A stretch of DNA of 31,888 nucleotides, from IMG/VR virus record IMGVR_UViG_3300037743_000407, positions 1 to 31,888 of that record; one strand, 5' to 3'. Each line of letters opens with the position of its first letter. Within the stretch, counting starts at the first letter, position 1. The notes under the pieces were generated by a model, which saw only the letters and a program-made list of their open reading frames with translations, was not told where the DNA came from and searched no databases. The translations under genes and the position numbers were made by a program. Shown here piece after piece: positions 2,882-21,005 of this stretch. This DNA is from a virus (lineage: Duplodnaviria > Caudoviricetes).

Positions 2882-3219
2882 CCCGCTGCGCGGCGGCCTG
2901 CGGCCGCGACCTGCCCGACGAGGAGCTGATCGAGACCGGCGGCGTGCTGGTGTGCGGGCCGTGTCACGAGTCGATCGCCAAACAGGCCGAGCGTCGCGAC
3001 TCGATCGACGACGCCTGGCGGGCGGTGGAGATCGCCCGCGGTTACCGGGTCGTCGATCTCCACGAGCTTTCACCGACCGACGAGATGCCGCAGACGCTAT
3101 GGTTCGCGGCTGCCCGCCGCGGCGACGAGCCGAAGCCGTGCGTGCTGGGCTCGACGCCGGTCGAGGCCCTGCGCCGCCTGGCGGCCAAGCTCGCCGACGA
3201 GCGGTCGGGGGTGACCTGA
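2878..3219 (+). CDS. Hypothetical protein with N-terminal Cys4 zinc finger
   Basis: CAAAC...CGPC; ATGA coupling. Confidence 0.7.
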   Translation: MTRCAAACGRDLPDEELIETGGVLVCGPCHESIAKQAERRDSIDDAWRAVEIARGYRVVDLHELSPTDEMPQTLWFAAARRGDEPKPCVLGSTPVEALRRLAAKLADERSGVT

Positions 3220-10890: not shown

Positions 10891-10988
10891 CCTTCGATCT
10901 GATCAGCTTTGTGCTCGGGGCTCTCGTAGGCGCGGCCGTCATCTGCTTCGTCGTCGGCGCACTCGTGGACAGGGCGCTGCGTCGATGA
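10887..10988 (+). CDS. Small membrane protein (33 aa)
   Basis: MTFDLISFVLGALVGAAVICFVVGALVDRALRR; GTGA/ATGA overlaps. Confidence 0.65.
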   Translation: MTFDLISFVLGALVGAAVICFVVGALVDRALRR

Positions 10989-12538
10989 CCCTGCCCCGTT
11001 CCCTCGACGACCTGGCCGGCCTGCGCGCCGCGCGCTGGATCCGCGAGAGCACCGCCGAGCAGACCGACCGCTACGGGCCGGCCGCGCAGCGCGAGCACCA
11101 GGACCGCGCCATCGCTCGTCACGGCCTGGTCGACAGCGGCCTGGTCTGGCAGGTCGCCCACTCCGGGCGCACGATCGCCACGACGCCGGCCTTCGTCCAG
11201 ATGATGGCCGCCGCCGGCGTTGAGTTCGACGTCCTGCTGGTCGGCTACGTCAGCCGCTTCGCGCGCGACCTCGAGACCGCGGTCACCGCCCGTCGTCAGC
11301 TGCACGCCGCCGACGCCGCGATCCTGTTCTGCGACGATGGCATCCTGACCAGCGACGTCGACCAGTGGGAGCGCTGGGCGCGCGAGGCGGTCGAGGCCGA
11401 GGCCTACAGCCACCGCCTGGCGCGCCGCATCAGCGAGGGCTATGCGGCCAAGTTCCGGGGCGGCGACCAGGGCGGCTCGCCCGGGCTCGGGTTCATGCGC
11501 ACGCCGGCGCCCGACAGCCGGCTGGTCATCGACCCGGCCGCCATGCCGCGCGCGGTGGCGCTGTTCGAGCGCTACGCGATCGGCAGCGTGTCGATCGCCG
11601 AGCTGGCCGCCGACGACGGAGGGCTCGGGGTCGAGGGCGTGCGCGCCATCCTGGCCAACCCGCTGTACAACGGCTGGGCGGTCCGCCATCGCCAGCGGCC
11701 CGACGAGAGCCGCAGCGCGGCGCCGTGGCGCTCGAGCCCGCCGGTGGACGACGAGCTGTGGGCCCGCGTCCAGGCCGTGCGCGCCGAGCGCCATCGCGGC
11801 GGCGGCGGGCCCGCTCGCCACGTGCACCTGCTCGCCAAGCGCCTGTGGTGCGCCTGCGGCCGCCGGCTGCGGGCCGACGTCGCCCACCAGCGGCGCTCGG
11901 CGCCGATCCGCCGCTACCGCCACGACGATCGCTGCATGGCCTGGTCGACGTCGACCGTGCCTGCCCGCCGCCTCGAGGAGGTCGTCGATCGCCAGCTGCG
12001 CGAGCTGCGGCTCGACGCGGCGTGGCTCGCGCGCCTGCGGCTGCTGGCCGGGCAGGCGGTGCCCGCGCCCCAGAGCGGGGAGCTGCGCCGCCGGCAGCTC
12101 GAGCGCGAGCTCGAGGGCAAGGCGCGGCTGCTCGCCCGCCGCCAGCTGACGACCGAGGCCTTCGTCGCCGAGTCCGAGCGCATCCGCGCCGAGCTCGACG
12201 CGCTCGAAACTGTTCCGACGTCGGTACGGTTGGTCGATCCCGACGCGGCCATCGTCGCGCTGCGGACGCTGCGCACGGCCTGGCGCGACGCGGATCCCGA
12301 CGTGCGCCGGCGTCTGGTGCGCGCCGTCTTCGAGCGGGTCGAGGTCGTCGACCCCGCCGTTCCGGTCGCCCTCCACCAACGGCTCACCCCCTGGGCCCGG
12401 GCGCACGGGCTGGCCACCGCGCTGCCGGTGACGGTGGTTCTAGCGTCCCCGGCAGGGGCCGGGCTGTGGCGCGCCACAGTCACCATCGAGGGACGCGCCG
12501 AGGAGCTGGCCGCCGCGCGGCGGGTGCGCAGCGCATGA
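10985..12538 (+). CDS. int: Large serine recombinase (phage integrase)
   Basis: WIRESTAEQ catalytic Ser, FDVLLVGYVSRFARD, recombinase domain VRAILANPLYNG, P.VDDELW..VQ, zinc ribbon CACG...YRH...C, coiled coil. Confidence 0.93.
   Translation: MTLPRSLDDLAGLRAARWIRESTAEQTDRYGPAAQREHQDRAIARHGLVDSGLVWQVAHSGRTIATTPAFVQMMAAAGVEFDVLLVGYVSRFARDLETAVTARRQLHAADAAILFCDDGILTSDVDQWERWAREAVEAEAYSHRLARRISEGYAAKFRGGDQGGSPGLGFMRTPAPDSRLVIDPAAMPRAVALFERYAIGSVSIAELAADDGGLGVEGVRAILANPLYNGWAVRHRQRPDESRSAAPWRSSPPVDDELWARVQAVRAERHRGGGGPARHVHLLAKRLWCACGRRLRADVAHQRRSAPIRRYRHDDRCMAWSTSTVPARRLEEVVDRQLRELRLDAAWLARLRLLAGQAVPAPQSGELRRRQLERELEGKARLLARRQLTTEAFVAESERIRAELDALETVPTSVRLVDPDAAIVALRTLRTAWRDADPDVRRRLVRAVFERVEVVDPAVPVALHQRLTPWARAHGLATALPVTVVLASPAGAGLWRATVTIEGRAEELAAARRVRSA
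12208..12231. promoter_or_regulatory. parS-like palindrome, copy 2 (AACTGTTCCGACGTCGGTACGGTT)
   Basis: 23/24 identical to the reverse complement of 5936-5959. Confidence 0.6.
12427..12484. other. Candidate attP inside the integrase 3' end
   Basis: Two 28-bp arms around GG (12455-56); outer inverted repeat 10/11, inner 6/6; left arm resembles a tRNA 3' end on the minus strand. Confidence 0.7.
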
Positions 12539-12843
12539 GCCGCCGACGCCTGGTCGTCAACCGCACCAACTACGAGCTCGCCGCGCCACTGGCCGAGCAC
12601 GGCGCCGCGCTGGCCGAGCTGTACCGCCGCTGGGTGGCCGAGGAGCAGCGATTGACCATCGAGCTCGGCGCCGACGAGCCGCCGACCTTCGCCGACTTCG
12701 TGGCCTGGATCGTCGAGCGTGGCAACCGCCACCCCCACCGCCCGCCGGGCCGGCCCGAGCACCCGGGCGCGCGCCGCAACCGCTCACGGGCCGCCCTGGC
12801 GCGTCACCAGCGTGAGCGCGAGCGGCAGACCGCCTCGGCCTAG
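12535..12843 (+). CDS. Hypothetical protein coupled to the integrase (102 aa, basic C-terminus)
   Basis: ATGA overlap with the int stop; MSRRRLVVNRTNYELAAP... Confidence 0.7.
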   Translation: MSRRRLVVNRTNYELAAPLAEHGAALAELYRRWVAEEQRLTIELGADEPPTFADFVAWIVERGNRHPHRPPGRPEHPGARRNRSRAALARHQRERERQTASA

Positions 12844-12868
12844 GTTCTGTACTCCGCCCGGCTAGGGT
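12838..12868 (+). promoter_or_regulatory. Putative late promoter, copy 1: GCCTAGGTTCTGTAC-N8-GCTAGGGT
   Basis: Repeated with identical spacing at 20975-21005; TANNNT -10-like box; lies at a module boundary. Confidence 0.7.
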
Positions 12869-12902
12869 GCCGGGTCATGAGCGCACCGCCCGCTGTTTCG
12901 CC

Positions 12903-13184
12903 GTGAGCGAACACGATGCAACCAACGGCGTGCGGGTCGCCAGCGCGGAGATCTACCGCCTGCTGCTCGAAGCCAACGGGCGTGTGTCATCCGTGCAACA
13001 GACGATCGAACAGGTCGTGATGCCGACGCTGAAACGGCATGCGGCTGTCCTCGACACAAAGGCTGAAAAGAGCGTTGTCGAGGATCACGAGAAGGAGCTC
13101 GAGCGCATGAAGGTGCAGGTGTGGGCGATCAGCGCCGGCCTCATCGCTGCGGGCATCGGTGCCAAGGGACTCGGGTTTCTGTGA
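12903..13184 (+). CDS. Coiled-coil protein with C-terminal TM helix (XhlA/holin-like topology)
   Basis: VEDHEKELERMK then VWAISAGLIAAGIGAKGLGFL; start uncertain (12867 or 12903). Confidence 0.6.
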   Translation: MSEHDATNGVRVASAEIYRLLLEANGRVSSVQQTIEQVVMPTLKRHAAVLDTKAEKSVVEDHEKELERMKVQVWAISAGLIAAGIGAKGLGFL

Positions 13185-13899: not shown

Positions 13900-14000
13900 G
13901 CGGCGACTTCCTGTGGGGCTTTGCGGCCGGCGTGGCTGCCACCCTGATCGCCGTGGCGGTCCTGGCCTACGCCAGCGTTGATCGGACGCTGCATCGATGA
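13896..14000 (+). CDS. Small membrane protein (34 aa)
   Basis: MSGDFLWGFAAGVAATLIAVAVLAYASVDRTLHR; ATGA overlaps at both ends. Confidence 0.65.
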   Translation: MSGDFLWGFAAGVAATLIAVAVLAYASVDRTLHR

Positions 14001-14458
14001 ACGCCGTCGCTCTGCTGCTGGCGCTGCTCGTGTCGCTGACCGGCATCGACCGCACCGTCGACCCGGGCCTGACCGCCATCGCCGAGCGTCGCGTGGTCGA
14101 GATCAGCGCTTGCCCCGACGTCCTAGAGCCGGACCCGGCGACTGGTGAGCTGGTGTTGGTGCCGGGACCGTGCTGGAGTCACGACGGCAGCGACCCATGC
14201 TGCAACGAGGTGCTGGCCTTCAACAGCGGCTATGCCGACCCGGTGACGCACCTCGCCGAGCAGTGGCAGGGCTCGCCGGTGCACTGGGCGATTCTGACCG
14301 ATCCGGGCTACACCGCCATCGGTTGCGCGGTCGCCTTCGTCGAGAACCGCGCGTACGCCGCCTGCGTGCTGGCCGGTGGCGGGCAGCCAGCGACAGCGCC
14401 GTCGCCTCCTCCACCGCCCCCGCCGGGCCTGCCCGACACTGCCATGGAGGCGCCGTGA
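13997..14458 (+). CDS. Secreted CAP/SCP-domain protein
   Basis: Signal peptide; WSH, NEVLA, WQGSPVHWAILTDPGYTAIGCAV; ends in LPDTAMEAP. Confidence 0.8.
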   Translation: MNAVALLLALLVSLTGIDRTVDPGLTAIAERRVVEISACPDVLEPDPATGELVLVPGPCWSHDGSDPCCNEVLAFNSGYADPVTHLAEQWQGSPVHWAILTDPGYTAIGCAVAFVENRAYAACVLAGGGQPATAPSPPPPPPPGLPDTAMEAP

Positions 14459-17043: not shown

Positions 17044-18049
17044 CCTTCGCATCCGCTGGGGCGCCGGCGAGGCGACGCTGTGGGGGCGGCGCATGTACCT
17101 CGGCGGTGCCAACGACGAGAGCGCGGTCGACAAGATCAAGGGCGTCACGCTGGCCGGCCTGCTCGGCGACGAGATCAGCACCTGGCCGCCGAACGTGTTC
17201 AAGATGGTGCTCAGCCGGTTGTCGATCGAGGACGCCAAGCTGTTCGGCACCACCAACCCCGAGGCGCCGATGCACTGGTTGATGGCCGAGTACCTGAGCC
17301 GCGCCGACGAGCTCGACCTGGCGCGCTTCCACTTCACCATCGACGACAACCCGTTCCTGGCCCCGGCCTTCGTGGCGGCGCTCAAGAAGGAGTACACCGG
17401 GCTCTGGTACCGGCGCTACATCGAGGGCGAGTGGGTCGTCGCCGAGGGTGCCATCTACGACATGCTCGACGACCGGCGCCACCTGGTCGACGTGCTGCCC
17501 GAGCTGATCGAGACCTGGGACGTCATCGACTACGGCACCACCAACCCGACCGTGTTTCTGGCCCTGAGCCTCGGCGTCGACGGCCGACTGTACGTCCACG
17601 ACGAGTGGCGCTGGGACTCGGCCAAGAAGGGCCACTCGCTGACCGACGCGGAGTACTCGGGGCACCTGCGCGCCTGGCACGCCCGCCTCAAGCGCGAGCC
17701 GCGCTGGATCTACGTCGACCCCAGCGCCGCCAGCTTCAGCACCCAGCTGTGGCGCGACAAGGTGCGCGGCGTGGTCCCCGCCGACAACACCGTCATCGAC
17801 GGCATCCGCGAGGTGGCCATGCTGCTCGGGCTCAACCTGCTCAAGTTCCACGCGCCGACCACCGTCGATGCCTGGGGCGAGTTCGTCGGCTACGTGTGGG
17901 ACCCGAAGAAGCAGGCCAAGGGCGAGGACGCCCCGCTGAAGGTCAACGACCACGCCCCCGATGCCGTCCGCTACGGGATCCGCAGCACGCACACCGTCTG
18001 GCACCCCTGGATCAGCAGCCACGAGGAGACCGCCCATGTCGCTACCTGA
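16808..18049 (+). CDS. terL: Terminase large subunit (PBSX-like)
   Basis: DGSVRASKT Walker A, LGDEI Walker B, TTNP, IDYGTTNPT, VDPSAA, NDHAPDAVRY. Confidence 0.95.
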   Translation: MPTLSYPSPKQAASILGSTARINIWDGSVRASKTVATLIRWLDFVAHGPDGELLLLAKTERTLARNILHPLEQILAPGDLRIRWGAGEATLWGRRMYLGGANDESAVDKIKGVTLAGLLGDEISTWPPNVFKMVLSRLSIEDAKLFGTTNPEAPMHWLMAEYLSRADELDLARFHFTIDDNPFLAPAFVAALKKEYTGLWYRRYIEGEWVVAEGAIYDMLDDRRHLVDVLPELIETWDVIDYGTTNPTVFLALSLGVDGRLYVHDEWRWDSAKKGHSLTDAEYSGHLRAWHARLKREPRWIYVDPSAASFSTQLWRDKVRGVVPADNTVIDGIREVAMLLGLNLLKFHAPTTVDAWGEFVGYVWDPKKQAKGEDAPLKVNDHAPDAVRYGIRSTHTVWHPWISSHEETAHVAT

Positions 18050-19562
18050 TGGGGGCCGGTCGCCCTGGCCGCCCGAGCCGGCGCGTCCCGCCCTGCGGCT
18101 GATTCGCGAGTGGTCGGCGTGGTGGAGCGCCGACCCGGCCAACCTGATCGCCGTGTACGGCTCGACCGTCGGCGGCCAGGCGACGGCCATGGCGCCCAAG
18201 AACTGGTTCCGCCGCTTCTGGGAGCGCATCGCCGGCAGCGGCCAGAGCTTCGGCTCGCCCGAGGGGCGCCAGCGCGCCTACCTGCACGTGCCGCTGGCCA
18301 GCGACATGGCGGCCACCAGTGCGGCGCTGCTGTTCAGCGAGGCGCCGACCATCCGCATCGCGGCCGCCCACCTCGCCGGCGCGACGACGGTGGTCAAGGC
18401 CACCGAGGCCGAGCTGCAGCGCATCCGCTCCGAGGGCGGGCTCGACGCGCGCCTGCTCGAGGCGGCCGACTATGCCGCCGGGCTGGGCGGCGTGTTCCTC
18501 AAGCCGACCTGGGACCAGGACCTGGCCGACTACCCGCTGCTCGAGGTCGTGCAGCCCGACCAGGCGCTGCCCGAGTTCCGGCACGGGATCCTGACCGCCG
18601 CCACGCTGTGGCGCGAAGTCGACCGCACCGACAAGGAGGTCCTCCGCCATCTCGAGCGGCACGAGGTGGTCGATGGCCGCAGCTTCGTGCTGCACGCGCT
18701 GTACCGCGGCGACGACGAGGTCCTCGGCACGCGCATGGAGGACGCAGAGCTGCTGGCCAAGGTCGAGCTCGAGCCGAGCGTCGAGCTGCCGTTCGAGGGG
18801 CTCGGCGTCGGGTACGTGCCGAACCTGCGGCCCAACCACCGGCTGCGCGGGTCATCGCTGGGCGAGGCCGACTACGGCGGTCGCGAGGGCCTGCTCGACG
18901 CGCTCGACGAGGCGTACGCCTCCTGGATGCGCGACATTCGGCTCGGCAAGGGGCGGATCCTGGTCAGCCGCCAGATGCTCGACACCAACCGCCGCTTCGA
19001 CATGGACCACGAGGTGTATGCCCCGATCGAGATGCCCGGCGCCTCGGCCGGCACGCCGCTCAAGGATCAGATCAGCGCCGAGCAGTTCCAGATCCGCTAC
19101 GAGGCGCACCGCGACACGTGCCTGACGCTCACCGAACGCATCGTGTCGGGACCGTATTCGCCGCAGACCTTCGGGCTGCACATCGAGGGCCGCGCCGAGT
19201 CGGGCACCGCGCTCGACATCCGCGAGCGACGCACGTTCATGACCCAGCAGCGCAAGGCCGCCTGGTGGGGCGCCGCGGTGGCCACCGCCACCGAGCAGAT
19301 GCTGATCGTGGCGCGCCACGTGTTCAACCGGCCGATCGAGTCGATGCGCCCGAGCGTCGAGCTCAGCGACTCGGTGGCCACCGACGCCTACCGCACGGCC
19401 GAGACGGTCGACCTGCTGAACCGCGCCGAGGCCGCCTCGCGTCGGACGCTGGTCGAGATGCAACACCCCGACTGGACGCGCGAGCAGGTGCAGGTCGAGG
19501 TCGACGCCATCCTCGCCGAGCGCGGCCTGGCCGTCGCCCCGCCCGATGAGCCGCCGGTCTGA
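18036..19562 (+). CDS. Portal protein (A118/SPP1-like)
   Basis: GAGGAG RBS; follows terL; HVPLASDMA..SA.LLF.E, YVPN, LDALDEAY.SWMRD.RLGK, YSPQTFG, HPDW. Confidence 0.9.
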   Translation: MSLPDGGRSPWPPEPARPALRLIREWSAWWSADPANLIAVYGSTVGGQATAMAPKNWFRRFWERIAGSGQSFGSPEGRQRAYLHVPLASDMAATSAALLFSEAPTIRIAAAHLAGATTVVKATEAELQRIRSEGGLDARLLEAADYAAGLGGVFLKPTWDQDLADYPLLEVVQPDQALPEFRHGILTAATLWREVDRTDKEVLRHLERHEVVDGRSFVLHALYRGDDEVLGTRMEDAELLAKVELEPSVELPFEGLGVGYVPNLRPNHRLRGSSLGEADYGGREGLLDALDEAYASWMRDIRLGKGRILVSRQMLDTNRRFDMDHEVYAPIEMPGASAGTPLKDQISAEQFQIRYEAHRDTCLTLTERIVSGPYSPQTFGLHIEGRAESGTALDIRERRTFMTQQRKAAWWGAAVATATEQMLIVARHVFNRPIESMRPSVELSDSVATDAYRTAETVDLLNRAEAASRRTLVEMQHPDWTREQVQVEVDAILAERGLAVAPPDEPPV

Positions 19563-20803: not shown

Positions 20804-20980
20804 GTGGCCATCGGCATCCGGATCGAGCTCCGCGACCTCCCGCGCCTCAAGCAGTTGATCTGGGAGCTGCGCCAGACCGAGCAGCGCCTGCGCGATGCCG
20901 GCCGTCCCGAGGCCGACGAGATCGAGCACATGCTCGATCGCTTCCTGGCCGATATCAGCCTCGACGAGCGGTCCGCCTAG
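20804..20980 (+). CDS. Hypothetical protein (58 aa)
   Basis: Hand-translated MAIGIRIELRDLPRLKQLIWELRQTEQRL...; stop codon lies inside the promoter motif. Confidence 0.55.
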   Translation: MAIGIRIELRDLPRLKQLIWELRQTEQRLRDAGRPEADEIEHMLDRFLADISLDERSA

Positions 20981-21005
20981 GTTCTGTACCCCCTCCTGCT
21001 AGGTT
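20975..21005 (+). promoter_or_regulatory. Putative late promoter, copy 2: GCCTAGGTTCTGTAC-N8-GCTAGGTT
   Basis: Matches 12838-12868; upstream of the scaffold and capsid genes. Confidence 0.7.

Follow-up and report, generated by a model that had tools for sequence, protein, structure and literature searches.

Integrases whose genes contain the attachment site (attP) on which they act have been described in several mobile elements, and the closest case is DsiB, a large serine recombinase of the Dehalococcoides ssrA islands. According to the available part of McMurdie 2011 (PMC3146451), the 3′ end of its gene always overlaps the att site, the C-terminus changes with the state of the island, and the protein is perhaps fully functional only on the circle. 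For the archaeal suicidal integrases of SSV1, pTN3 and pT26-2, the accessible text of Badel 2021 (PMC8371274) describes attP within int, gene integrity as a control of directionality, and halves that can be exchanged. The sections of Islander 2014 at hand report that Mx8 and SSV integrases extend across attP and that serine recombinases were not known at tRNA genes; phiRSM1 and the Mycobacterium actinomycete integrative and conjugative elements (AICEs) are given as rare serine recombinases at the 3′ end of a tRNA in the corresponding part of Ghinet 2011 (PMC3218068). Here, we analyzed the whole IMG/VR virus record IMGVR_UViG_3300037743_000407 (31,888 bp, hereafter the window), which comes from a tailed phage and encodes a large serine integrase. 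We found that attP very probably lies inside the integrase gene, so that integration would exchange the last 26 of its 517 residues, and we propose that this exchange acts as a switch between the integrated and the free state.

By Pfam, PHROG and fold, the gene product is a large serine integrase. It matched PF00239 (Resolvase, E 2e-11), with S22 and the SRFAR motif conserved, and PHROG 95 (E 3e-46), and its match to PF07508 (Recombinase) stayed below the cut-off (19.3 vs 21.1 bits). The zinc-ribbon residues C289, C291 and H313 are invariant, and the helical hairpin 366-408 corresponds to the coiled coil. In addition, the top Foldseek matches of the AlphaFold2 model (pLDDT 93) were the serine integrase-att complexes 9dxf and 9dxd (E 7e-15), Bxb1 and phiC31; a search of the ESM Atlas gave only unnamed matches under 0.9. 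The locus thus holds the catalytic domain, the Recombinase, zinc-ribbon and coiled-coil parts, and a symmetric attP of about 50 bp at a 2-bp crossover. The first-pass annotation of this DNA had already read the gene as co-oriented and translationally coupled at the end of the early operon. The frame and the ATGA overlap at its stop are present in the sequence, and the major early and late genes scanned share its strand.

The same annotation had placed the crossover in codon 491 of 517, within LASPA-G. This codon occupies 12455-12457, and its first two bases, GG, turned out to be both the centre of an imperfect palindrome and the end of a short tRNA copy. The two outer arms of the palindrome pair at 10 of 11 positions and are centred exactly on GG, and at distances of 17-28 nt from it 10 of 12 positions are symmetric. 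Among the 31,808 centres scored across the window only 15 reached this symmetry, and among the 1,540 in the gene only 2. The tRNA copy corresponds, on the opposite strand, to the 14 nt that end just before CA, and it is exact in three of the four tRNA-Arg(UCU) genes at related loci. Furthermore, the symmetry is a property of the family. In the 22 of 31 free-form loci where the core pattern was found, the mean symmetry about the equivalent GG was 16.8/30, compared with 7.7-10.3 at centres shifted by 1-3 nt and with 10.8/30 at 79 integrated junctions. Judged from sequence, this layout is that of a serine-integrase attP with a predicted 2-bp crossover.

Both states of the gene were found among the relatives. 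When 120 related proteins (query included) were sorted by script on the type of their C-terminal tail, 68 had a phage tail and 33 a tRNA-encoded tail; 9 were unclassified (phage-type by eye) and 10 unparsed. Phage tails measured 25-26 residues in 42 of the 68, and tRNA-derived tails ranged from 5 to 26 residues in several frames. In 96 of 171 loci the integrase gene ended at an intact tRNA of opposite orientation, namely 79 tRNA-Arg, 8 Pro, 6 Val, 2 Asp and 1 Lys (not dereplicated). On nine contigs both junctions were present, with the displaced phage tail after the distant copy (attL), and two of the nine also had upstream integrase remnants. The block shared by attL and attR ended 0-2 nt beyond the GG-equivalent dinucleotide, and of 30 positions scored, 15-22 were symmetric in the reconstructed attP and 6-14 in attB. 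Three contigs were left out of this count: L074, where the upstream copy is an attP-type remnant, and L150 and L146, where the upstream tails are remnant or degenerate. Meanwhile, either tail was found on near-identical bodies, with 98.6% identity over the last 140 residues between P0042 and L090, and 96.4% over the same length between L247 and L087, which come from one metagenome-assembled genome (MAG). In these relatives the C-terminus depends on the state and the target tRNA is restored, and we regard it as nearly certain that attP lies in the integrase gene and that the tail is swapped on integration. Given the tRNAs found at these loci, the prophage form of this phage would end in about 15 tRNA-encoded residues, like P0004. 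Comparing integrated with free homologs had been suggested in the first-pass annotation, which expected the last residues to be replaced by a tail encoded antisense to a tRNA; the shared bodies, the two states and the nine two-junction contigs support this strongly in relatives, and the antisense orientation of the tRNA to int, which it also expected, is seen at the 96 loci.

Some variants of this arrangement deserve mention. In the subclades of L017, L018, L042, L070, L091, L114, L116 and L120, either the target was switched to tRNA-Asp, -Val or -Pro, or the unchanged tRNA-Arg core is read in another frame, and attP is still intragenic. The Chloroflexota MAGs G025, G024, G030, G020 and G026 hold 4-8 tail matches each, many of them an integrase remnant followed by a coupled gene, which suggests tandem accretion at the tRNA. 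In addition, an in-frame ATG, GTG or TTG arises at attL from the host base before the complement of the tRNA CCA in L082, L237, L239, L245, L251, L242 and L243. The displaced tail could be made there as a free peptide of 30 residues, and these starts are likely to occur by chance because of the CCA end.

We propose that the swap is a state switch in which the exchanged piece, by prediction, sits on the directionality domain. We give this reading a probability of about 0.5. A lone prophage would encode only the tail-less integrase and a free phage only the full-length one, so that either isoform would be available in the state that calls for its reaction. According to the accessible portion of Shin 2025 (PMC12286644, PMC11722253), recombination directionality factors (RDFs) dock on this domain, in most cases by contributing a strand, and the docking site may be blocked by C-terminal extensions; whether the extended enzymes lack an RDF or use another route to directionality is left open there. 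Since the tail is predicted to place one strand and one helix on the same domain, we expect integration to be favoured by the full form and excision to be permitted by the tail-less one. As a second layer, ORF12535 (the open reading frame after the integrase) and read-through would be reconnected to the late side only after excision, because attP separates the early operon from the lysis and packaging genes. The switch would act beside a cI/cro switch and not instead of it. A bolder version of the proposal is possible but doubtful. In that version the reaction itself would strip off the strand-helix cap and make an enzyme that could only integrate competent for excision without a separate factor, the late regulator would be disconnected, and lysis and packaging would be licensed only after circularisation.

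The predicted fold and the conservation of the tail bear directly on the state switch. AlphaFold2 models the strand and the helix of the tail with pLDDT 90-93. In a covariation analysis of 117 free forms (effective number of sequences 88), 7 of the top 40 pairs joined tail residues 500-514 to residues 456-477, mostly to the strand 462-467, where about one was expected. The tail is predicted, on this weak evidence, to pack on the last sheet of DNA-binding domain 2. In addition, across 31 tails the Gly is written with 4 different codons and the Arg with 5, and beyond the attP arm the hydrophobic strand, the Gly-Arg and the amphipathic helix of the mid-tail are kept with synonymous variation. The tail thus appears to be conserved at the protein level beyond its function as DNA, although part of this is built into the selection. 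Its first third would be the attP arm and its last codons would serve coupling. GCA encodes the terminal Ala in 15 of 27 tails compared with 70 of 1,435 cases in gene bodies; for the preceding Arg, AGG or AGA is used in 13 of 23 compared with 61 of 1,414.

The position of attP in the genome concerns the second layer. Downstream of the integrase and in the same orientation, portal or terminase genes were found at 6 of the 10 free loci scanned and on two more contigs; some of these have a lysin gene in between. attP is thus placed at the boundary of early and late genes, and integration would send the late block and the early block to opposite ends of the prophage. A start codon overlaps the integrase stop in 31 of 34 free forms vs 6 of 79 integrated forms. 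Among the 31 coupled genes scanned, 14 encode helix-turn-helix (HTH) proteins, including two excisionase-like HTH_17 and many LuxR-like ones. At attL, the last 26 codons and the ATGA overlap remain joined to the downstream gene. The first-pass annotation had claimed that integration removes both the upstream transcription and the translational coupling of ORF12535. The first half would stand, since the gene loses its upstream operon together with the ribosomes arriving from int; the second half does not, as the ATGA coupling travels with the gene to attL.

Several observations weigh against the state switch. The characterised two-junction elements are satellite-like or cargo islands of 4-44 kb, none of them a full prophage. 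The packing site of the tail comes from the weak covariation above, with a residue range picked post hoc, and the strongest tail pair (485-497) probably reflects the DNA palindrome and not a contact. The conservation at the protein level is partly built in because the regular expression used selected Gly and Arg, because codons 1-8/9 are the attP arm and because the end serves coupling. Extension residues 469-491 stay after integration and might still cover the docking site. Furthermore, a start at -4 before TGA is common by chance in GC-rich DNA, and the other coupled genes are mixed (3/31 endonuclease VII, 4/31 ParB or ParB-methylase, 10/31 without a family). The link between ORF12535 and a late-promoter-like motif is seen at two loci, possibly by shared descent, and ORF12535 has no match in Pfam, PHROG, PDB sequences or viral folds and none to a known DNA-binding family.

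Alternatively, the swap could be a dimmer of activity. The tail would be needed for full folding or activity, and the prophage form would be weak in both directions and would stabilise lysogeny; excision would then depend on residual activity, on the full-length copy of a tandem or incoming element, or on a tail supplied from attL. The published speculation on DsiB and the logic of the archaeal suicidal integrases point this way, and so do the structural look of the tail (AlphaFold2, covariation) and the tandem copies and integrase remnants with attP-type junctions that are common in MAGs. Many attL junctions also have the in-frame start codon described above, though likely by chance. However, all catalytic residues, the zinc-ribbon residues and the coiled coil are N-terminal to residue 491, unlike in SSV1-type splits. 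In addition, excision appears to be frequent, judging from the many free forms (at least 68 of 120). We consider a dimmer conceivable, with fairly low odds.

It is rather unlikely that the swap is simply a tolerated by-product. The two isoforms would then be alike, the tail would serve as attP arm, coupler and mild stabiliser, and the downstream gene would be whatever comes next. This would account for tRNA tails of such varied length and frame, for a tail of which the first third is spanned by the attP symmetry and the end codon bias is explained by coupling, for the high variability of the coupled gene, and for the cI/cro-like switch in relatives. It does not account for the mid-tail strand, the Gly-Arg and the amphipathic helix, which are kept outside the attP arm with synonymous variation, or for the clustering of tail lengths in 42 of the 68.

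ORF12535 has been read in different ways. The overlap of its start with the integrase stop, as described in the first-pass annotation, is present in the sequence, and the same annotation took the gene as a candidate directionality factor or late activator. In the first role, coupling would hold the gene together with the integrase. The product is small and helical, its gene is likewise coupled to an integrase in L172 and, probably, on one other contig, and known factors are structurally diverse, some purely helical, as far as the available text of Shin 2025 goes. However, a dedicated directionality factor is argued against because the downstream gene is not conserved across the integrase family. 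The homolog in L172 is 66% identical and stands in the same position, behind an integrase that is only 32% identical and has a tRNA-Val-type core, and the late-promoter-like motif is kept after it. Therefore ORF12535 tracks the motif and does not co-vary with the integrase; its profile hidden Markov model matched no other of the 171 integrase loci. Furthermore, integration would cut the gene off from its operon at the very time an excision factor is required. We judge a role as RDF improbable. Because ORF12535 belongs to no known family and lies before a motif repeated ahead of the capsid genes, we favour a late regulator over a directionality factor. The role of late activator fits better in this respect, although no DNA-binding family was matched. 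A late regulator and an ordinary variable gene are each plausible, at somewhat less than even odds.

Finally, the -SA or -TA end could be a protease tag that destabilises the phage isoform and is removed by integration, but this is very unlikely: such an end is found in 58 of the 68 phage-type tails, SA is kept in two loci without coupling and most relatives of ORF12535 have Ala-rich ends, yet the terminal Ala comes largely from the ATGA/GTGA overlap, the Arg before it from purine-rich codons, and the tail is predicted to be folded to its end. A tag of this kind is reportedly removed by integration in the mycobacteriophages with attP in the repressor gene studied by Broussard in 2013.

Four close and six more distant relatives of ORF12535 were collected, and P0127 and P0132 were excluded from the alignment as repeat matches. 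Scans of viral contigs with ORF12535 and with single proteins gave no match. A ribbon-helix-helix reading, taken from look-alikes in L021 and L101, was dropped because the model has no strand. In the relatives P0121-P0133 a basic helix comes after a common RPxGRP motif, an arrangement that we take to be AT-hook/NUMOD3-like, and their mostly Ala-rich termini presumably resemble protease tags. The tail end, ORF12535 and the motif are common to two integrases that are 32% identical and have different tRNA targets (L172 1098-2956; window 10985-12843), which suggests that tail modules were swapped between integrase bodies at attP. Meanwhile, a conserved LuxR-like HTH gene is coupled behind the attL tail in the islands L041, L120, L128, L237, L239, L241, L243, L248 and L259; it is a better candidate than ORF12535 for a clade-specific excision regulator.

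The motif of 24 nt after ORF12535 occurs in two exact copies in the window, where 0.03 were expected by chance. The first-pass annotation had put a late promoter at the end of ORF12535; no match to a sigma-70 consensus was found in this putative promoter, which precedes the lysis and packaging block, but its motif recurs before the head genes. In L172, the motif is conserved after the stop of the ORF12535 homolog (2956-2985) and the next genes differ, so that it follows ORF12535 in both of the loci with DNA. It is missing in all four related phages searched, and their integrase loci have no ORF12535 homolog. In viral contigs the motif was matched at 61 stretches; no homolog of ORF12535 or of the integrase accompanied any of them, and they were taken as chance. 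In addition, a leader ORF starts 8 nt past the motif hexamer TAG-G/T-GT in both the window and L172; that of L172 has 19 codons (2991-3050) and the same GTGA coupling to the next gene. Leaderless translation or attenuation is possibly involved.

With regard to repression, the first-pass annotation saw no CI-like repressor in the window. This is correct but uninformative, because the record ends inside reading frames; it starts 11.0 kb upstream of int, and in the closest complete relative (G031, integrase 64% identical) int is preceded at a distance of about 11.3 kb by a divergent 148-residue HTH_3 gene and its 77-residue partner. Truncation is therefore the probable cause of the absence. Divergent HTH pairs were found in three of five related phages. 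The notion that integration replaces CI, which the annotation had implied, was rejected on these cI/cro-like pairs. After integration, transcription of the host tRNA would point into int. No U-rich terminator was found in the window after the restored tRNA, and a T-rich run occurs within 150 nt in 18 of 95 integrated loci.

Both ends of the record fall within reading frames, thus the genome is partial. Its early genes include SSB, RusA and ParB, followed by the integrase and then by terminase, portal, head and tail genes, and the major early and late genes scanned are all on the + strand. A gene with a CAP (cysteine-rich secretory protein) domain lies at 13997-14458 between integrase and terminase, and the C-terminal part of the portal frame (17961-19562) weakly matches a family of antitoxins related to Rv0078B (E 0.001, below cut-off). 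Three DNA sequencing runs, and no RNA run, were listed as containing the phage; among their contigs, no piece across attP and no tRNA junction was found. The host would be a member of Chloroflexota, because 72 of 79 genome loci with related integrases have Chloroflexota-type titles, many of them Limnocylindria. The features are listed in Table 1.

Table 1. Positions of the integrase gene, its attachment site and the downstream features in the window
Feature	Position	Strand	Remarks
Large serine integrase, attP (phage) isoform	10985..12538	+	517 aa; Pfam, PHROG, fold
attP, imperfect palindrome	12427..12484		outer inverted arms 12427-12437 and 12474-12484
14-nt copy of tRNA-Arg(UCU) 3′ end	12443..12456	-	would restore the tRNA upon integration
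Predicted central crossover dinucleotide GG	12455..12456		first two bases of codon 491; centre of symmetry
Swappable tail, residues 492-517	12458..12538	+	P′ arm, predicted strand 494-501 and helix 504-516, ATGA overlap
ORF12535, candidate late regulator	12535..12843	+	102 aa, three predicted helices, basic C-terminal half
Candidate late-promoter motif	12842..12868	+	AGGTTCTGTAC-N8-GCTAG, then GGT; exact 24-nt copy at 12842-12865
Nine-codon leader ORF	12877..12906	+	GTGA-coupled to ORF 12903-13184
Second motif copy	20979..21002	+	upstream of scaffold-like and major head genes

These results could be useful in several ways. The matched natural pairs, with one body and two tails, make two questions directly testable, the one raised in Shin 2025 and that of McMurdie 2011, whether the function of an att-spanning serine integrase shifts with its state. 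If the tail sets the direction, such enzymes would offer a one-gene reversible recombinase for genetic circuits, in addition to a set of tRNA-targeting serine integrases. Screens may misjudge integrases of this kind when they are cloned from prophages, because the cloned enzyme is then the tail-less form. Furthermore, the phage layout suggests a checkpoint in phages of uncultured Chloroflexota through which late expression would depend on excision.

Compared with the known systems, the integrase shares its fold, its domain order and a symmetric attP around a central dinucleotide with the SPbeta, Bxb1, phiC31 and LI integrases. In those, as far as the available descriptions go, attP lies outside the gene and a separate protein sets the direction, whereas the present family exchanges part of the extension by the reaction itself. 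The available text on phiRSM1, which is resolvase-like, and on the AICEs mentions no intragenic attP or tail swap. In the SSV1-type archaeal tyrosine integrases, which share attP within int, the gene is split into two large inactive parts, whereas the present integrase is of the serine family and has only 26 of 517 residues displaced, keeping 491 with all catalytic parts; it is therefore not suicidal in that sense. Myxophage Mx8 is also a temperate phage with attP in int, a tRNA target and an altered C-terminus, but its integrase is a tyrosine recombinase. The piece replaced on integration is presumably longer in Mx8, and to our knowledge no coupled gene or early/late split has been described for it. 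In lambda (sib retroregulation) and in BPs and Brujita (attP in the repressor gene), the state of recombination alters the expression or stability of a phage regulator. Those are tyrosine systems that work through RNA decay or removal of a repressor tag, not through an integrase tail and a severed operon.

The first-pass annotation had supposed that a serine-integrase version gating a downstream gene may be undescribed. As to the literature, Yu 2025 does not describe this design, and the word 'tRNA' does not occur in the available main text of Durrant 2023. In the literature searched, we found no paper on the early/late split or on a serine integrase from a phage in which a conserved, folded tail can be swapped; Mageeney 2020, on regulated gene integrity, may bear on this. 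The supposition appears to hold for a phage version with a coupled gene and not for att-spanning serine recombinases as such, since DsiB was described in 2011. According to the accessible description, DsiB is likewise a Chloroflexota large serine recombinase whose 3′ end runs across att in tDNA and whose C-terminus depends on the state. Its own features in that description are the CcrB-like type, the DsiA partner, integrative-mobilizable islands and the tmRNA target. Among the 30 window proteins scanned there is no second recombinase that could stand for the partner DsiA or CcrA, and the target here is a tRNA and not ssrA. Unlike DsiB, the present family targets tRNA-Arg (also Pro, Val and Asp), belongs to tailed phages and satellites, and has a mapped 2-bp crossover, a conserved tail that is predicted to fold, and a coupled downstream gene. 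Thus the swap is in print in outline, and the mapped crossover, the structured tail, the coupled gene and the phage layout appear to be new.

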